Shown here: piece after piece, positions 1,377-37,353 of the stretch | How positions within the stretch are numbered: position 1 is the first letter of the stretch | Layout: every line of letters starts with the position of its first letter | Origin: an uncultured Erysipelotrichaceae bacterium | GTDB lineage: Bacteria; Bacillota_I; Bacilli_A; RF39; UBA660 | Reading direction: 5' to 3' | DNA: 64,000 nt | Assembly: GCA_902783315.1 (NCBI GenBank) | Contig: CACZQK010000073.1 | Coordinates: 2,498-66,497 of the forward strand | Program-made: the position numbers and the translations under genes | The notes under the pieces: model-generated | The model's database searches: none | Seen by the model: the letters and a program-made list of their open reading frames with translations, nothing else | Told to the model about the DNA's origin: nothing

Positions 1377-1557
1377 TAAGTGAGTTTGACTTTTTAAAGT
1401 TTTGGATTATTCTATTTATAGGAATTAGTTGTATTGATAACTTTCTTTAAAAGAGTAGGTTTTAATTCTTTTAGGTAAGAAGAATTATTACATGCTGTGA
1501 GATATCCCTTCGAGTAATGGAGAGATATCTTTTTTCATATAAAAAATCAAAAAAAGG

Positions 1558-1608
1558 TTGACTTCATACTATGTTATTAGTAAAATGTTAATAACAAGCA
1601 AACGCTTG
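1558..1608 (+). promoter_or_regulatory. Consensus sigma-A promoter (TTGACT-N17-TAAAAT) overlapped by an inverted repeat TGTTATTA-N8-TAATAACA and a second palindrome ACAAGC-AAAC-GCTTGT; putative operator
   Basis: -35 at 1558-1563, -10 at 1581-1586 with exact 17-nt spacer; A-tract upstream; motif recurs at 18667-18719. Confidence 0.55.
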
Positions 1609-1718
1609 TATTGATTAAAAGATATGTTTTTAACATGACGATAATAAGAATTTTTGAGAGGCTATAGTTTTATGATGAAGTGTATTAGAGGATACAAATT
1701 TGTAAGGAGATGGTCAAT

Positions 1719-2080
1719 TTGAAACATATTATAATTGCTGGATGTTTGAGAACTGGTAAAACAAGACTTTCCGGTTTATTTGAAGATGGTGGTTACATTT
1801 AAATAATACTATAATAGTATTTTTAGGATATCAAAATGTAGACAAACATAAAAAACTGTGTGCTATAAAGAAATATGATAAAAAGGGAGTATGGACTTTT
1901 TCTAAAAATGATAATGAATTACTTAATCACATCGAATTAGAAATTAAATATAGTATAGAAGCAAAAGAAAAATGTTGTTTATTAGGAATACCGTTTTTTG
2001 ATACTAGTTATGATTTTAATAAAGCTATAAATGATGCTTACAGTTATATAAAAAGTGAACTTGTTAAAGGAGATAATTAA
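1719..2080 (+). pseudogene. Frameshifted, truncated dNMP-kinase-like P-loop NTPase (paralog of the genes at 43384-44477)
   Basis: TTG-initiated LKHIIIAGCLRTGKTRLSGLFEDGGYI* (Walker A) stops at 1800-1802. The +2 frame continues open from 1784 to TAA 2078-2080 (…GIPFFDTSYDFNKAINDAYSYIKSELVKGDN). Its tail resembles the C-termini of the 43384 and 43932 proteins. Confidence 0.4.
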
Positions 2081-3330: not shown

Positions 3331-3791
3331 AGTAATTTATTTTGTTTGATGATATGGTACGCGATTGTTTTGTTGTAACTAACTATATAGCAGTAATTTA
3401 CTAGATATTGGTTAGATTCATATTATTTAAGTTTCAGTAAAATAATTCTTGACATAGAAAAAGTGAATTTGTATTTTCTACAGATTCGCTTTTTTGTCTT
3501 AAAAATAAGGTAGCAATTCTCTAGTATTTAGTATAATTTAGCTATCTAAAAAATAATAGTAAACAAAAATAAAAGTTTGTCTTATGAAAAGAAATTTATT
3601 ATATTTTTCTAATTTTATACAATATTGATTATCGATAAAAGATATTATATGATCTTGGGAAGAAGTTAAATGGGTTTGTAGATGCTTTTTATAATGACAA
3701 ACTCTATAAAAAATCTTTATTGATAATGTAAAAAAATAAAAAAATATATCTTAGATAATTGCTGATAAAATTGTAGATAGGTAGGATTATT

Positions 3792-4025
3792 GTGGATTTT
3801 GAAAATGTAAGCATAGCAAGTGAAAAAAACACAAGATATTCAGTAAATGAAAAAGAAATGCAAATACGAGTAACTTGTTTGGATGGTACTGTGCAGTTAA
3901 TTTCATATGCTGATTTTGAACAAGATAAGCGTAAAACACTACGAAGTACTAAAGCCTTGTTAGCGGCTTATGTAGGTTCAGCGGTTGTAGTAACTCTTCT
4001 TCTATACTTTTTTGGTGGTTATTAG
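3792..4025 (+). CDS. Small hypothetical protein with C-terminal TM helix (GTG start)
   Basis: RBS GTAGGA 5 nt before GTG; 77 aa; C-terminal hydrophobic segment. Confidence 0.3.
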   Translation: MDFENVSIASEKNTRYSVNEKEMQIRVTCLDGTVQLISYADFEQDKRKTLRSTKALLAAYVGSAVVVTLLLYFFGGY

Positions 4026-4391
4026 AATATAGTACTAATCATAATATACTTTTACCTTGTTTTGTCTTTGATTCTGCTATGTATTTTGAGTACCAAGGTT
4101 ATTTAGAATTTAGTAAAATAAAAGCGTCTGAAAAAGAGAAAAACTATATGAGTCATGCAACCACAGAGATATTTCTTTTAAAATAAGTAGATTAAATATC
4201 TACTTTTTATCTGTTTTAATAAAGAATGATATTTATAAAATGTTTTTTAATTATTAGTTTTTCTGTTATAATTATATTTAGGAATGGTATGACGAAAAAA
4301 ACAACAAGTGCTTCTTGTATATTGTTGTGACAAATTAGAGTGTAATATACAAATGCTACAGTTTTATGAATAAAATAAGGAGAATAGGAAA

Positions 4392-5168
4392 ATGAATAAT
4401 GAAGTAAATAATGGAAAAATTAAGAATATTATTATAATTATATTAGTTGCATTATTGATAATCGCATCAGGATTTATTTACTATGATAAAATTTTTTCTA
4501 ATAAAAAATCAGTTTGTGAAAAAAAATGCCCTGTTTGTGAAAAATGTAATAGTAAATCAGAAATTATTGGTACTTCTTGGTACATTAATCAATATGAGAA
4601 ATTAGTAGAAAAATATATGATGGGGAATCCTCCTACAAATTGTAGTACAATAGAAATATTTGCTAATGACAAAGTAGTAAAGGCAAATGACATTTCGAAT
4701 TTGTATGCTGCTAATACTGTAATACTAAATTTAGAAAACTTACCTAATACTATCAGTTTAGAAGAATTTGATAACGAAATAAAAAAACTATTTGGTAGTG
4801 ACTATGTTTTTAATCCTGAAACTCTTGTTGATAAGGCAGAATTAGCAGAATATAAATATAGTGATAAAGTGTTTATAAAGAGGTCTAATAATTGGGGAGG
4901 AACCTGTGGGCCAACATCAAGTTATAAAGTGGTCGATTTCAAAAAATATGATAATGTCTTAGAAGTATATCTACGTGTTATATTTGCTGGACTAGATGAA
5001 GAAGGTCTTTATATTAATAAATACTATTCAGATTATAATCGTACTAATTTAATTGTGAGTGATAGATATCCTGATGAAGACGAATATAAAAAAGGTGATT
5101 TATATAAATTAACATTTAATACGGATAGTGTAAATTATAAGTTTATTTCATCTGAATTGTCGAATTGA
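4392..5168 (+). CDS. Membrane-anchored extracytoplasmic protein, hypothetical
   Basis: Strong RBS AAGGAGAATAGG; N-terminal TM anchor (IIIIILVALLIIASGFIYY) followed by a Cys-rich segment CEKKCPVCEKC. Confidence 0.55.
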   Translation: MNNEVNNGKIKNIIIIILVALLIIASGFIYYDKIFSNKKSVCEKKCPVCEKCNSKSEIIGTSWYINQYEKLVEKYMMGNPPTNCSTIEIFANDKVVKANDISNLYAANTVILNLENLPNTISLEEFDNEIKKLFGSDYVFNPETLVDKAELAEYKYSDKVFIKRSNNWGGTCGPTSSYKVVDFKKYDNVLEVYLRVIFAGLDEEGLYINKYYSDYNRTNLIVSDRYPDEDEYKKGDLYKLTFNTDSVNYKFISSELSN

Positions 5169-5214
5169 TTAAATAAGGGTATGTGAGTATCATTATATTG
5201 AAAGGAAGTAATTT

Positions 5215-6102
5215 ATGACAAGTAAATTTGCAATAATAGAAATTGGTAGTTATAATACCAAAACGCATATTTATGAAAAAGGTATGTTAATTTCTGATAA
5301 TACTGCTACTATTAAATTTAAATCGGGCTATGAAAAAAACAGTAAAATATTAAAAGAAGATTTAGAATTGTTGTATAAACAAATAGAAAAGACATTAGAA
5401 TACACTAATAATGTTCACATATATGGTTGCAGTATTTTTAGAAACATTTCTAAGAAAGAACTTGCTGAGATTAACCAAACTATTTATGATAGATATAAAT
5501 TAAAGATTGAAGTTGTAACACAAGAAGATGAGGCTAAATATACAGCATTAGGTTGCTATAGTGATCTGAATTATTCGGGAAATGTTTGCGTATTTATAGG
5601 TGGTGGAGGTTCTATTGAATTAGTATTTGTTAATCAAAAAAAGATAATTGATAGGTATTTTTATAATTTTGGTGTTGTAGATGTTACAAATAAATATAAA
5701 AGTTTAAAGGATGATATACCAACATGTACTTTTGACGAAGTATATGATTATGTTGATGCTCTCATTAATAATATAAAAACAAAGGCGGATGTTTTAATTT
5801 TAGCGGGAGGAGATCATATTTATTGGTATAATAATGCAGGATATAAATTGTTGAAAAATACATTATATAAAAATGAAAAGCAAAAATATATGATAACAAA
5901 AGAAATGAGTGATCAATATGATAGAAATGCTTTTGTAGCATCTTTGAAAATGATTCGTAATAATAGTGATAATCCAAGTTGGTTTGATGGATCAAGGGCT
6001 ATGAAAGTAATTACTAATTTAATATCTACTAGAATAGATGCTAAATATATTATTCCAACAAGTATTAATATGGAGGATGGAATAAAAGATATATTGAAAT
6101 AG
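5215..6102 (+). CDS. Ppx/GppA-like (ASKHA fold) phosphatase family protein
   Basis: N-terminal FAIIEIGSYNTK and internal VFIGGGGSIELV glycine-rich motifs, typical of the Ppx/GppA actin-like fold. Confidence 0.5.
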   Translation: MTSKFAIIEIGSYNTKTHIYEKGMLISDNTATIKFKSGYEKNSKILKEDLELLYKQIEKTLEYTNNVHIYGCSIFRNISKKELAEINQTIYDRYKLKIEVVTQEDEAKYTALGCYSDLNYSGNVCVFIGGGGSIELVFVNQKKIIDRYFYNFGVVDVTNKYKSLKDDIPTCTFDEVYDYVDALINNIKTKADVLILAGGDHIYWYNNAGYKLLKNTLYKNEKQKYMITKEMSDQYDRNAFVASLKMIRNNSDNPSWFDGSRAMKVITNLISTRIDAKYIIPTSINMEDGIKDILK

Positions 6103-18365: not shown

Positions 18366-18666
18366 TATGTGTTATAAAATGCAAAGAAAATTATGATTGA
18401 TTTAGAGATAGTGGGTAAAGATATGAAAAATCCTTAAACAAAGAAGTCTTGTAACACAAATTATTATAAGTAACATAAGATTGATGTCTAATATCAGTAA
18501 GGTTATTAGGTTTATTAAATGATTCTAGTAAATATTTATCTTTTCTTAATTCTCTTCTTTTTTTTTGCGATTCATTATTATATACCCCTTTCCTATTATG
18601 TAATAATTATATCAAATTTTATTGCGAAGAAAATTTACTCTTTTTCACTGAAAATTGAAAAAAAAC

Positions 18667-18719
18667 TTGACAAACTTGTTTGTTATTAATATAATGTTAA
18701 TAACAAACAAAAAAGTTTG
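18667..18719 (+). promoter_or_regulatory. Perfect consensus sigma-A promoter (TTGACA-N17-TATAAT) embedded in a ~49-bp palindrome (CAAACTTGTTTGTTATTAA / TTAATAACAAACAAAAAAGTTTG); putative operator. A related half-site TGTTATTAACA lies at 18737
   Basis: -35 at 18667-18672, -10 at 18690-18695 with exact 17-nt spacer; inverted-repeat arms centred on the -10; same core as 1558-1608. Confidence 0.6.
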
Positions 18720-18774
18720 CTGTTATTTATATCCTCTGTTATTAACATATGGATATTAAGAAAGGGTGATTAGT

Positions 18775-19380
18775 ATGAATCTTGGTTATAAAATCATAGA
18801 TCAGTATAGTTATATTACAAAAGAAGGGAAAGCTAAAAATAATTATTATCTTAAGAGAAATTTTAGTAAAAAAGAGATAGAAAAAACAAAGTTATTGCAA
18901 AAAGGTTTTTTAGACTTTGAACAAAAAGTAAGGGGAAGTGATGAACTGTTATGTAATTGTATTCAAGGAATAAAATATTATAGTGATAAAGGGTATATTT
19001 GGTGGGTTAATGCGGATAGATCTTTGGTTGATATTTACTATTTTGGAAACGAATATGATGAAGCATTAGTAAATGGTCTTATAGAATATGAATTTCGTAT
19101 CAATTTGCATAGAGAATTAATGCGTCGAGAAAAGTTAAATCGACAATTTGCAAAAAGATTTCCAGAAATAGATGGAGATTATCATGGACCATTCTTTTTT
19201 GCAGAATTTGCATTACAAGACTTTCGAAAATATTATGGAAATAATATACCTTATTATCTTGTTCGATATTATGAAGATTATTTGGAGGCTGTCGAAGGAG
19301 AAAATTATCCTAATCGATATGATTTCTTCGAGAATAAATTGGTATTACAAAAAAAATTAACCAGACATTATAAATTGTAA
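18775..19380 (+). CDS. Hypothetical protein (no recognisable domain)
   Basis: RBS GGGTGA before ATG 18775 (track ORF from 18766); 201 aa, aromatic-rich; its 3' end abuts the IS remnant. Confidence 0.5.
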   Translation: MNLGYKIIDQYSYITKEGKAKNNYYLKRNFSKKEIEKTKLLQKGFLDFEQKVRGSDELLCNCIQGIKYYSDKGYIWWVNADRSLVDIYYFGNEYDEALVNGLIEYEFRINLHRELMRREKLNRQFAKRFPEIDGDYHGPFFFAEFALQDFRKYYGNNIPYYLVRYYEDYLEAVEGENYPNRYDFFENKLVLQKKLTRHYKL

Positions 19381-29259: not shown

Positions 29260-30090
29260 GTGCGTGCATGGCATATATCTAGGCAGTCAGAATAAATAAG
29301 TAGGAAAGATTAGCGTATCTAAAGAAAAGTCCTATAAAAGATATTAGTCTATGAGCGAAATTAGAAAGGATGAAATAAATCAAGATAAACTAATAGGAAT
29401 AATAAGAAGAACAATAAAAGAGGTAATCTTGTATCTCTAATTAGGAAATCCTTACAAAGTAGAGTAATGGAAAATGGCGTATTACAACCAACTAAGAAAG
29501 AAACTCCACAAGGAGGAAACTTAAGCCCCTTATTATCTAATATAATGCTTAATGAATTAGATAAAGAACTTGAGGCAAGAGGACTTAACTTTGTTAGATA
29601 CGCCGATGATTGTTTAATAATGGTTAAATCAGAAAAAGCAGCAAATAGTGTTATGGAAAGTATAACTAAGAAATTAGGATTAAAAGTGAATGTAGAAAAG
29701 AGTAAAGTAGCAAGACCAGATGATATAAAATACCTAGGATTTTGATTTTACAAGAAAATGAATCAGAATATATGGAGACCAAAACTACATATTAAGTCAG
29801 TACATATGAAAAGTATATTAACAAACATAGACAAAAATATTCTTAGAAAACTGGAATATTACATAGAGATGCATATGTGATAGTAAACTCTAGAAGAGGT
29901 TATTATCACATTGCTCATACAAGAGTACTAGAAACTGCAATAACCAAAGAAAGATTAAATAAAAGAGACCTAGTAAATTCGATAGACCACTACTTAAAAG
30001 TTCATATTATTACAAATTAAAACGCTGTATATCGAACAGTACGTATGATGGTGTGAAAGGGTATCATATCAATAAATGTCGAAAACTTTT
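29260..30090 (+). mobile_element. Internally deleted, decayed group II intron (probably bacterial class C type), inserted immediately after the terminator T-run; 3' boundary approximate
   Basis: GTGCG at 29260-29264 (group II 5' consensus GUGYG) directly after T8. Truncated RT ORF (RT domains 5-7) and frameshifted X/maturase remnants (…FYKKMNQNIWRPKLHIKSVHMKSI…, …YYHIAHTRVLETAI…). A GAAA-tetraloop hairpin near 30030-30060 is a possible domain V remnant. Confidence 0.55.
29428..29745 (+). pseudogene. Group II intron reverse transcriptase fragment (RT domains 4-7 only)
   Basis: LIRKSLQSRVMENGVLQPTKKETPQGGNLSPLLSNIMLNELDKELEARGLNFVRYADDCLIMV…KVNVEKSKVARP..YLGF; YADD active-site motif. No RT domains 0-3 upstream (an open low-complexity frame runs back to the TAA at 29386-29388, then junk). 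Confidence 0.7.
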
Positions 30091-34406: not shown

Positions 34407-34827
34407 AGTCGTTTATATAAACTTCCTATAATTGATATTATGTTAACTTCTATGTTTTGCTGATACCTATATTTATATTATAATGTGTGTAATTATAATA
34501 TTTTATTTTTTCTTCTTCTCTTTTTATATTATTATAATCTAATTAACTAATATATAAATGTATTTCTAAGAATATTATCAGACTGATTAGAATAAATTAA
34601 AGTTATACTTTAATTATTGGTAATTTATATTTATGGATTGTCTTTATTGAAATAAAACACATGTCATTCTTTCTTTTATTATAATTAAAGGAAATTCATT
34701 TTAAGCCATTTATAGTGTTTTAAATGGACTGTTTTATACAGCTAAATCTTTTAAAATTAACATATTAATATTAAAGTGTATAAAATTCATTTTATTACTC
34801 ATAATAATTAAAAAGGAGGAATTTAAT

Positions 34828-36246: not shown

Positions 36247-37140
36247 TTACTCCTTCTTACTTCGCAAATGGTATTGAATATAGTCATCGACTACTTTTTG
36301 ATTACTAACTTGAGTGTAGATTTTCGTAGTTGAAATGTCTGAATGTCCTAGCATCTCTTGAATACTTCGAAGATCAGCTCCCCTATTAATTAAATGAGTT
36401 GCAAAACTATGTCTTAATGTATGTGGGGAAATATTTGGATTTAGTTTTTTTTCTAGAAGTAGAGCTTTTAAAATTTTAAAGAAGCCTTGTCGACTTATAC
36501 CTGTTCCGTGATTATTTAAAAACAGCTTTGTACAATTCTTTTTCTTTAACAAATGTTCTCTTTGATTTAAATAAAGTTTTAAATAGTGAATTGCATATTC
36601 ACCTATGGGAACTTGTCTTTCTTTTCCACCTTTTCCAAAATATATATGGATTAAACAATTATGTATATCAATATCATTTGTTTCTAAATTTATTAATTCG
36701 CTTATTCTTAAACCACATCCATACATTAATTCTAACATAGCTTTATTACGATAGTCAAATGGCGTGTTTAAAGGAATATCTAATAGTAAATTAATATCAT
36801 CTAGGCTAATTGCTTTGGGGATACTTTTTTTTAGTTTTGGTCTTTCAATAAATTCAGCTATATTTTCTTTTACTATATTTTCTCTGAATAGATAGACATG
36901 GAAATTTTTGATTACGGTTAGATTGTGAGCAATTGTTGTTATTTGTTCTTCGTTCCGTACTTTTAAAAATTCTTGGATATGATGATTTTTAATATCTTCT
37001 ACTAATTTTATATTTTTCTTTTTTAAAAAGATATTATAGATTTTTAAATCGTTTGAGTAAGAGGCTATTGTTTTATCAGATAATCCTTTTTCAAATACAC
37101 AATAACTTAAAAAGTCTTTAATGGCATCTTCTATTTTCAT
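36247..37140 (-). CDS. xerD: Tyrosine recombinase XerD/XerC-like
   Basis: C-terminal catalytic motifs HTLRHSFATHL…GADLRSIQEMLGHSDISTTKIYTQV; start ATG at 37140 after AGGTGA (track ORF from 37185). Confidence 0.85.
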   Translation of the reverse strand: MKIEDAIKDFLSYCVFEKGLSDKTIASYSNDLKIYNIFLKKKNIKLVEDIKNHHIQEFLKVRNEEQITTIAHNLTVIKNFHVYLFRENIVKENIAEFIERPKLKKSIPKAISLDDINLLLDIPLNTPFDYRNKAMLELMYGCGLRISELINLETNDIDIHNCLIHIYFGKGGKERQVPIGEYAIHYLKLYLNQREHLLKKKNCTKLFLNNHGTGISRQGFFKILKALLLEKKLNPNISPHTLRHSFATHLINRGADLRSIQEMLGHSDISTTKIYTQVSNQKVVDDYIQYHLRSKKE

Positions 37141-37353
37141 GTAATCACCTATTTTAAGTATACATAAAATAATATAATTTATCAAATATATTGATAGCAG
37201 AATAACTTAGAACTATTTGTGAAAAACAAAAAGTAAAGATTAATGTATTCCAAATAATGAAGGTTTAATAGACTTTGTTTATTTATAATGAAAAATAAAA
37301 GCCACTCATAAATTTGAGTCGCTATATTAAATTTTCATTCATTATTAAATTTC

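Follow-up and report, generated by a model that had tools for sequence, protein, structure and literature searches.

A 64-kb stretch of contig CACZQK010000073.1 from an uncultured Erysipelotrichaceae bacterium (hereafter the window, meaning the whole stretch of 64,000 nucleotides; 27% GC, from a spore-forming Firmicute) includes two sigma-A promoters, designated site A and site B, each of which carries two copies of a palindromic operator box. The boxes are most likely a lineage-specific operator pair for NrtR, and the regulator that acts on them is probably NrtR, the Nudix-related, ADP-ribose-responsive repressor of NAD metabolism. This assignment was reached by comparison with related genomes, in which the same promoter cassette precedes NAD genes and, repeatedly, nrtR itself. 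It goes beyond the first-pass annotation of this DNA, which had proposed an unnamed dimeric repressor with one operator at each promoter; there are two operators per promoter, not one.

Probable paired operators at two promoters of the window

Near-consensus sigma-A -35 and -10 hexamers separated by 17-nt spacers, as described in the first-pass annotation, were read at both sites (Table 1). Site B matches the sigma-70 consensus at 12/12 positions and site A at 10/12. The -10 hexamer was also correctly placed in the centre of the same inverted repeat, TGTTATTA-N9-TAATAACA, which occurs as exact copies at 1572-1596 and 18681-18705. At both sites the complete box is a 25-bp palindrome with a 9-N7-9 layout, TGTTATTAA-N7-TTAATAACA. 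The -10 hexamer occupies box positions 10-15 at sites A and B and across the family of related sites, a placement that is compatible with repression. An 11-bp palindrome, TGTTAWTAACA, was also considered as the unit. It has three exact copies, all at sites A and B, and its count with one mismatch is non-significant; the 25-bp reading was preferred because it fits the family better.

With up to two mismatches allowed, TGTTATTA-N9-TAATAACA has six matches in the window versus 0.39 expected, and six were reached in none of 100 shuffles. Two of the four extra inexact matches are non-random, being located 53 and 56 bp 3' of the exact ones. When boxes were scored over the two 9-bp half-sites, those at 1572, 1625, 18681, and 18737 were the only ones in the window with 15/18 or more, and the number of boxes scoring 13-14/18 corresponded to the shuffle rate (57 versus ~50 in shuffles).

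Alignment of sites A and B revealed modular similarity over ~120 bp between flanks that are otherwise unrelated, as had been noted. The similarity found earlier therefore stands, but its extent does not, since it had been given as ~45 bp and the module includes the second box downstream. The order of elements is the same at both sites: an A-tract, the -35 hexamer, box 1 (O1) with the central -10 hexamer, a short hairpin, box 2 (O2), and the ribosome-binding site.

A 49-bp palindrome had been claimed at site B. The part that holds is the 25-bp box with a symmetric extension of 5 bp on each side (35 bp), and the remainder belongs to a separate local hairpin. The apparent 49-bp palindrome arises because GTTTG at 18715-18719 pairs locally with CAAAC at 18704-18708, and the CAAAC further upstream is shifted out of register with this GTTTG by 4 nt. 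Hence, the long palindrome proposed for site B is in large part the 5'-terminal hairpin.

The cassette in related genomes and its probable regulator

One genome per species (GTDB representatives) was scanned with the pattern TTGAC-N17-19-TANAATGTTAATAACA, from which the left arm of the box was omitted on purpose. The cassette was found in at least 120 loci, and 8 kb of each was used for the counts of gene families given below. Nearly all loci are from uncultured Bacilli, Erysipelotrichaceae, Mycoplasmatota, Tenericutes, Candidatus Onthousia, and Candidatus Faecimonas, and nearly all hosts are AT-rich gut Bacilli or Mycoplasmatota known as metagenome-assembled genomes. The first-pass annotation had held that a genuine operator should recur in other genomic locations, and this one does. 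Fewer than ~10 chance matches were estimated from base composition, and nine matches that have no left arm look like chance.

The left arm is present in 110 of the 119 matches listed, although it was absent from the search pattern. Its conservation per position is T 75%, G 77%, T 75%, T 96%, A/T 98%, T 95%, T 94%, A 94%, and A 98%. The sixth base of the -35 hexamer is also conserved among these matches, and an AAAAA tract 5' of the -35 hexamer, likewise not in the search pattern, is at least 70% conserved over the 119 related promoters. The family consensus of the operator is TGTTATTAAyAwAATrTTAATAACA. At least one further box was found downstream at 98/110 sites among the matches listed, and two or three extra boxes at 16 of them. 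The start-to-start distance from box 1 to box 2 is mostly 52-58 bp (mode 54-57), and box 2 has the consensus TGTTATTAAyAAAATGTTAATAAGA, which runs into the Shine-Dalgarno sequence. The proposal that one dimeric repressor acts over both -10 hexamers thus has comparative support, as the palindrome is kept in more than 100 species-level genomes and deviations in its arms are one-sided.

A phage origin of the cassette was considered and rejected. A seed, TANAATGTTAATAACAA, occurs in 106 stretches of viral contigs, none of which has a left arm (up to two mismatches) together with a TTGAC -35 element; these matches look like chance, and hence the cassette is not a phage element. A text search of the literature for the motif strings returned only unrelated primers, and no experimental regulation data for this uncultured gut Bacilli/Mycoplasmatota group were found in the literature.

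Genes for NAD metabolism were recognised in 97 of 104 callable downstream operons among the matches listed, using BLAST clusters named by Pfam and crude gene calls; pncB, a PncC-like protein, and an ABC ATPase were named by reading the sequence, without a Pfam scan. The NAD-salvage genes behind the cassette are pncA, pncB, a Nudix gene, nadE, nadD, nadK, prs, and pnuC. A typical operon includes genes for a pncA-like isochorismatase, PncB, a Nudix hydrolase, NadE, NadD (often in two copies), NrtR, and NadK. Other sites lie 5' of prs, pnuC, or genes for NMN-adenylyltransferase-like, ADP-ribosylglycohydrolase, PncC-like, and several radical-SAM proteins.

Full-length nrtR genes, 30 in number, were found in 29 of the at least 120 loci, and all 30 products include NUDIX and NrtR_WHD domains. 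Three copies cut by the end of the locus were added by tblastn, giving 32 loci. As 19 of the nrtR genes lie inside an operon directly behind a box, autoregulation is implied. NrtR is the only DNA-binding family that recurs near the boxes among the matches listed. In NCBIfam it matches best the model 'ADPR responsive transcriptional repressor', a family-level match that falls short of the equivalog cut-off. Sequence matches in the PDB are AraR 5bs6 and two entries deposited under the name 'MutT/nudix family protein', 2fml and 3gz5, both of which we take to be NrtR-family structures. The winged-helix region is highly conserved across the 30 NrtR proteins, which fits a near-invariant operator. 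NrtR regulons were originally defined by the same kinds of evidence as are available here, namely co-localisation, autoregulation, and a pathway-specific regulon (PMC2330246).

Most NrtR motifs are 21-bp palindromes with a GT-N7-AC core, from which the motifs of several lineages depart (Rodionov et al. 2008, PMC2330246). A palindrome of ~21-23 bp with a 7-bp centre is expected of an NrtR operator, and the box has this form (9-N7-9, with an 8-N7-8 core). Comparison with published operators gave agreement in layout with the mycobacterial NrtR site and disagreement with the motifs of NiaR, NadR, and Streptococcus NrtR. The verified palindrome of M. smegmatis NrtR is GTTTTCGA-N7-TCGAAAAC (Gao et al. 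2019, PMC6800001), and GTTATTAA-N7-TTAATAAC of the box shares with it the 8-N7-8 layout and the outer GTT...AAC. The Streptococcus NrtR motif, ATA-N-TTTA-N3-TAAAA-N2-ATA, does not match the box.

NiaR (YrxA) of Bacillus and Clostridium resembles the regulator sought in being a Firmicutes repressor of NAD genes with sites that overlap promoters. Its type I operator is a 22-bp imperfect repeat with a TGT-N4-ACA core, located mainly at nadABC and niaP (PMC2330245). This core is not present in the box, and a NiaR-like gene does not recur near the sites. The enterobacterial NadR operator, TGTTTA-N6-TAAACA (18 bp, with a 6-bp centre), is an NAD-regulon operator with a similar TGTT(T)A half-site, but differs from the box in spacing and half-site length; helix-turn-helix (HTH)-bearing NadR occurs only in Enterobacteria (PMC2330245, PMC2330246), whereas the NadR-like proteins encoded here are only small NMN-adenylyltransferase-like enzymes.

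The system thus resembles known NrtR regulons in the 7-bp-centred palindrome over promoter elements, in the location of sites 5' of pncA/pncB, nadD/nadE, prs, pnuC, and nrtR with the regulator often in the same operon, and in a regulator with a Nudix domain and an NrtR winged helix. It differs from them in a lineage-specific half-site, (T)GTTATTAA, in the -10 hexamer being almost invariantly the centre of the operator, and in the second operator at ~+55 by the Shine-Dalgarno sequence being the rule (98/110 matches listed). Uncharacterised families and radical-SAM enzymes are also included here.

From this arrangement we infer a mechanism that we regard as quite probable as a whole: an NrtR dimer would bind O1 and a second one O2, ADP-ribose would release both, and the strong promoter would then fire and give a transcript with a protective 5' stem-loop. 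Each site would be a strong sigma-A promoter built into an operator pair for a dimeric NrtR-family repressor encoded outside the window, which would combine a Nudix-like sensor domain with a winged-helix DNA-binding domain. A dimer on O1 (TGTTATTAA-N7-TTAATAACA, with the -10 hexamer at its centre) would exclude RNA polymerase, and a second dimer on O2, a weaker copy ~55 bp downstream, may serve as a roadblock or cooperate with that on O1. By analogy with characterised NrtR proteins, accumulation of ADP-ribose, a product of NAD cleavage, would lead to release of the repressor. The transcript is predicted to start inside the right arm of O1, near 1593-1594 at site A and 18702-18703 at site B, and to carry a short 5' stem-loop, which probably stabilises the mRNA. 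In the clade, the regulon would comprise pncA-pncB-Nudix-nadE-nadD-nrtR-nadK, prs, and pnuC operons. In the window, it would comprise two atypical targets, namely a decayed P-loop kinase gene with a HEAT/radical-SAM gene and the gene for a 201-aa protein. The mechanism is conventional, being a lineage-specific instance of a known regulatory system. The layout, with the -10 hexamer in an operator, a second operator at the ribosome-binding site, and a 5' stem-loop, would make a compact, tightly repressed, and intrinsically strong promoter.

Several observations weigh against assignment to NrtR. No nrtR gene, nor another gene for the regulator, was found in the window. This agrees with the earlier statement that the regulator is encoded elsewhere, and the link to NrtR consequently rests on related genomes. 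The GT-N7-AC core is not present in the box, which has GT and AC at its outer ends (GT-N19-AC) and AA and TT flanking the N7 centre. The -35 and -10 boxes and the right arm were fixed by the scan pattern, and these columns of the alignment hence carry no independent information. The O1-O2 spacing of 54-57 bp is a non-integral number of helical turns, contrary to strict face-of-helix cooperativity, and phased cooperativity is therefore not claimed. The targets in the window are non-canonical as NAD genes. The kinase and radical-SAM pair occurs in a related locus, L238, without a box, and no box was found upstream of the radical-SAM homologues in L235-L243, some of which are in phage-like contexts.

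The 5' hairpin and alternative explanations

The hairpin that follows box 1 has the same position at sites A and B and different sequences (Table 1); at site A it overlaps the last 3 nt of O1-A. A hairpin with a stem of at least 5 bp is present at this position in 89 of 113 related sites versus ~30 in shuffles, and it begins at the last 2-3 bases of box 1. The arms have 49 different sequences, indicating that the structure is conserved and the sequence is not. With a start ~7 nt after the -10 hexamer, the hairpin would be located at the very 5' end of the mRNA. Stabiliser stem-loops at the 5' terminus are known in Gram-positive mRNAs, such as the B. subtilis aprE and ermC leaders. The hairpin resembles these in being a short stem-loop a few nt from the predicted 5' end and may have the same role, although compared with them the stems here are short (5-7 bp) and some are weak (-3.3 kcal/mol at site B).

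The transcribed part of the cassette raises the question of whether the conserved elements act as RNA or as DNA. The 5' leader, consisting of the right arm of box 1, the hairpin, and box 2, might act as a regulatory RNA, either riboswitch-like or bound by a protein, through which an NAD-related metabolite is sensed and translation is controlled at the adjacent Shine-Dalgarno sequence. Box 2 is indeed transcribed, is a palindrome able to form a hairpin, and abuts the Shine-Dalgarno sequence; AAUAACA at the 5' end could pair with UGUUAUU of box 2, and the hairpin after box 1 is structurally conserved with many compensatory arm variants. Such an RNA is nevertheless highly improbable. Conservation is equal in the two arms of box 1, although the left one lies 5' of every position at which transcription could plausibly start. 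Among 92 different downstream boxes, departures from the consensus are one-sided, e.g. A/A at positions 3/23, 5/21, and 9/17 or G/G at 2/24. About two thirds of box 2 copies have a G at position 24, opposite G2, where an RNA pair would thereby be broken. Compensatory double changes hardly occur in the box arms, and variation at position 10 is independent of that at position 16 (Fisher p = 0.82). One-sided deviations of this kind are characteristic of DNA half-sites read by a protein rather than of an RNA helix. Folding of the full predicted leaders was no more stable than that of shuffled sequences (z = 0.04 and -0.54), and only the 5' hairpin stands out. A search against Rfam, NAD+ riboswitches included, gave nothing in the window at the gathering threshold and nothing at site B at E <= 1. 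The only matches near site A at E <= 1 were two sub-threshold ones to small RNAs (E 0.098 and 0.55; 21-23 bits versus gathering thresholds of 50-60).

If the boxes are read as DNA, they might still be NAD-regulon operators to which some other repressor binds in place of NrtR, for example an HTH protein that escaped recognition or a factor similar to NiaR or NadR encoded elsewhere in these genomes. This would account for NrtR being found neither in the window nor in roughly three of every four 8-kb loci, for the missing published core, and for the resemblance of the TGTTA half-site to TGTTTA of enterobacterial NadR. We consider it unlikely, as no other DNA-binding family recurs near the sites among the matches listed and the other clusters with at least five members comprise enzymes, transporters, or proteins of unknown function. 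Furthermore, NiaR and NadR sites have a different geometry and HTH-bearing NadR is restricted to Enterobacteria (PMC2330245, PMC2330246); 19 nrtR genes are in box-controlled operons and the winged helix of the 30 NrtR proteins is highly conserved, matching the near-invariant operator. There is only the slightest chance that the copies have no common regulator and represent a small mobile or duplicated promoter cassette, spread by recombination or in the manner of a miniature inverted-repeat transposable element. A ~120-bp module amid unrelated flanks would be expected of such a cassette, and so would its occurrence in a different neighbourhood at an orthologue of the 201-aa gene. However, the similarity is confined to functional blocks, with a hairpin and spacers that vary in sequence and length. 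No terminal repeats or target duplications were seen, the downstream genes belong overwhelmingly to one pathway, and viral contigs had no real copies among 106 seed matches. A pair of NrtR operators remains the preferred interpretation.

Target genes and other features of the window

Table 1. Elements of the two promoter cassettes and genes that follow them in the window.
Feature	Position	Strand	Remarks
A-rich tract, UP-element-like, 5' of -35, site A	1541-1557	+	From sequence; position of tract conserved in related promoters
-35 hexamer TTGACT, site A	1558-1563	+	Followed by 17-nt spacer
Operator O1-A, TGTTATTAG-TAAAATG-TTAATAACA	1572-1596	+	25-bp palindrome; -10 central; 17/18 half-site matches
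-10 hexamer TAAAAT, site A	1581-1586	+	
5'-terminal hairpin ACAAGC-AAAC-GCTTGT, site A	1594-1609	+	Arms 1594-1599 and 1604-1609; -7.1 kcal/mol, z = -3.8
Operator O2-A, TGTTTTTAA-CATGACG-ATAATAAGA	1625-1649	+	15/18 matches; 53 bp 3' of O1-A
Shine-Dalgarno-like GAGAGG and 16-codon ORF MMKCIRGYKFVRRWSI	1656-1722	+	GAGAGG 1656-1661; ORF 1672-1722; no conservation seen in related loci
P-loop kinase pseudogene	1719-2068	+	N-terminal fragment 1719-1802; C-terminal fragment 1796-2068 in another frame
HEAT-repeat/radical-SAM gene, 415 aa	2083-3330	+	14 nt after pseudogene; no terminator between
A-tract 5' of -35, site B	18658-18665	+	
-35 hexamer TTGACA, site B	18667-18672	+	Followed by 17-nt spacer
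Operator O1-B, TGTTATTAA-TATAATG-TTAATAACA	18681-18705	+	-10 central; 18/18 matches; same as family consensus
-10 hexamer TATAAT, site B	18690-18695	+	
5'-terminal hairpin CAAAC-AAAAAA-GTTTG, site B	18704-18719	+	Arms 18704-18708 and 18715-18719; weak, -3.3 kcal/mol
Operator O2-B, TGTTATTAA-CATATGG-ATATTAAGA	18737-18761	+	15/18 matches; 56 bp 3' of O1-B; ends right before Shine-Dalgarno
Gene for 201-aa protein, function unknown	18775-19380	+	First gene after site B

The 201-aa protein encoded after site B gave no match in Pfam and NCBIfam searches, and a Foldseek search of its AlphaFold model (mean pLDDT 79) against the PDB returned nothing below E = 1. An orthologue with 79% identity lies in different genomic surroundings and still has the entire cassette. 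A homologue (34% identity, E = 2e-20) lies between pncB and a Nudix gene in the L157 operon, and in L119 a domain weakly similar to the 201-aa protein is fused to a Nudix hydrolase (E = 8e-5). These two cases make the 201-aa gene a credible uncharacterised member of the regulon. Distant homologues in L005 and L006 have no upstream boxes, and hence neither this family nor the radical-SAM family is universally in the regulon.

The site A promoter had been predicted to drive a tiny ORF, a kinase pseudogene, and a HEAT/radical-SAM gene. Decay of the kinase gene is evident and co-transcription is probable, whereas no conservation of the tiny ORF was seen. This 16-codon ORF, of doubtful significance, sits where the first gene of the cassette normally starts. 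It ends in a TGA that shares bases with the TTG start codon of the kinase at 1719 (TTGA), an arrangement typical of translational coupling. The kinase pseudogene lacks ~66 central codons and has changed frame, as judged by comparison with the intact homologues in L238 (186 aa) and L196 (L196_g8, 177 aa). The latter is encoded inside an NAD operon and has only a weak Pfam match, to AAA_18; the intact L238 kinase has no PDB or NCBIfam match. The HEAT/radical-SAM gene is probably co-transcribed from the site A promoter, and the core of its product weakly resembles MoaA, viperin, and NrdG. In L238, the intact kinase gene (3436-3996) is followed by the same HEAT/radical-SAM gene (4001-5251), with a divergent LysR gene nearby. 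The ~1 kb that follows this gene in the window (3331-4391) has no convincing ORF, the only one being of 77 aa (3792-4025) with no Pfam match.

In this clade, the NrtR switch may also have come to control uncharacterised enzymes outside NAD salvage, a suggestion that we make tentatively and regard as rather doubtful. Candidates may include the P-loop kinase with the MoaA/viperin-like HEAT/radical-SAM protein, the 201-aa family, a 120-140-aa family, and several further radical-SAM proteins, including a fusion with a Nudix domain. Should they genuinely belong to the regulon, they could represent a branch of pyridine-nucleotide or ADP-ribose metabolism not known so far or, alternatively, an ADP-ribose-switched response to cleavage of NAD, for example in phage attack or by toxin action. 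More generally, a probable regulator, signal, and operator consensus can be named for AT-rich gut Bacilli and Mycoplasmatota, which form a large group of uncultured bacteria. The motif is sharp and thus usable for annotation, and genes behind it can be tied provisionally to NAD/ADP-ribose metabolism. Among these genes are those of the window for the 201-aa protein and for the kinase and HEAT/radical-SAM pair, which had no functional lead otherwise.

Other families were observed behind the operator. At least five radical-SAM families recur there (L231, L221, L133, L234, L120, L154, L155, and L189), including a radical-SAM-Nudix fusion (L231, 417 aa), a 230-241-aa family, and MiaB-like and HemN-like proteins. 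The 120-140-aa family (e.g. MKINFTEEQMKKILTLYFKE...), which has no Pfam match, was found in 16 loci, among them L118, L127, L133, L138, L153, and L163, and in 12-15 operons its gene comes first after the box; some of its genes stand alone and some precede pncA or prs. A ~157-aa protein with a phosphoribosyltransferase-like motif, FIFIDDSFWAGRT, is encoded between the box and nrtR in L117 (1758-2255), L136, L200, and L217. Inside the NAD operon chain of L196, gene g9 encodes a 148-aa protein whose C-terminus is rich in Cys and Ser, and g10, which follows it, a 305-aa radical-SAM protein; the pair looks like a precursor of a ribosomally synthesised and post-translationally modified peptide (RiPP) with its maturase.

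Elsewhere in the window, a 92-aa ORF (29467-29745) has a Pfam match to reverse transcriptase (RVT_1) and is probably what is left of a group II intron or retron. The sequence ACTTCCTATAATTGATATTATGTTAACT at 34421-34448 is located between convergent gene blocks where the GC skew changes sign, and matches at 24/28 positions what we take to be the B. subtilis dif sequence. A gene for an XerC/D-type recombinase (36247-37185, minus strand) lies 2 kb from it. The window probably spans the replication terminus.

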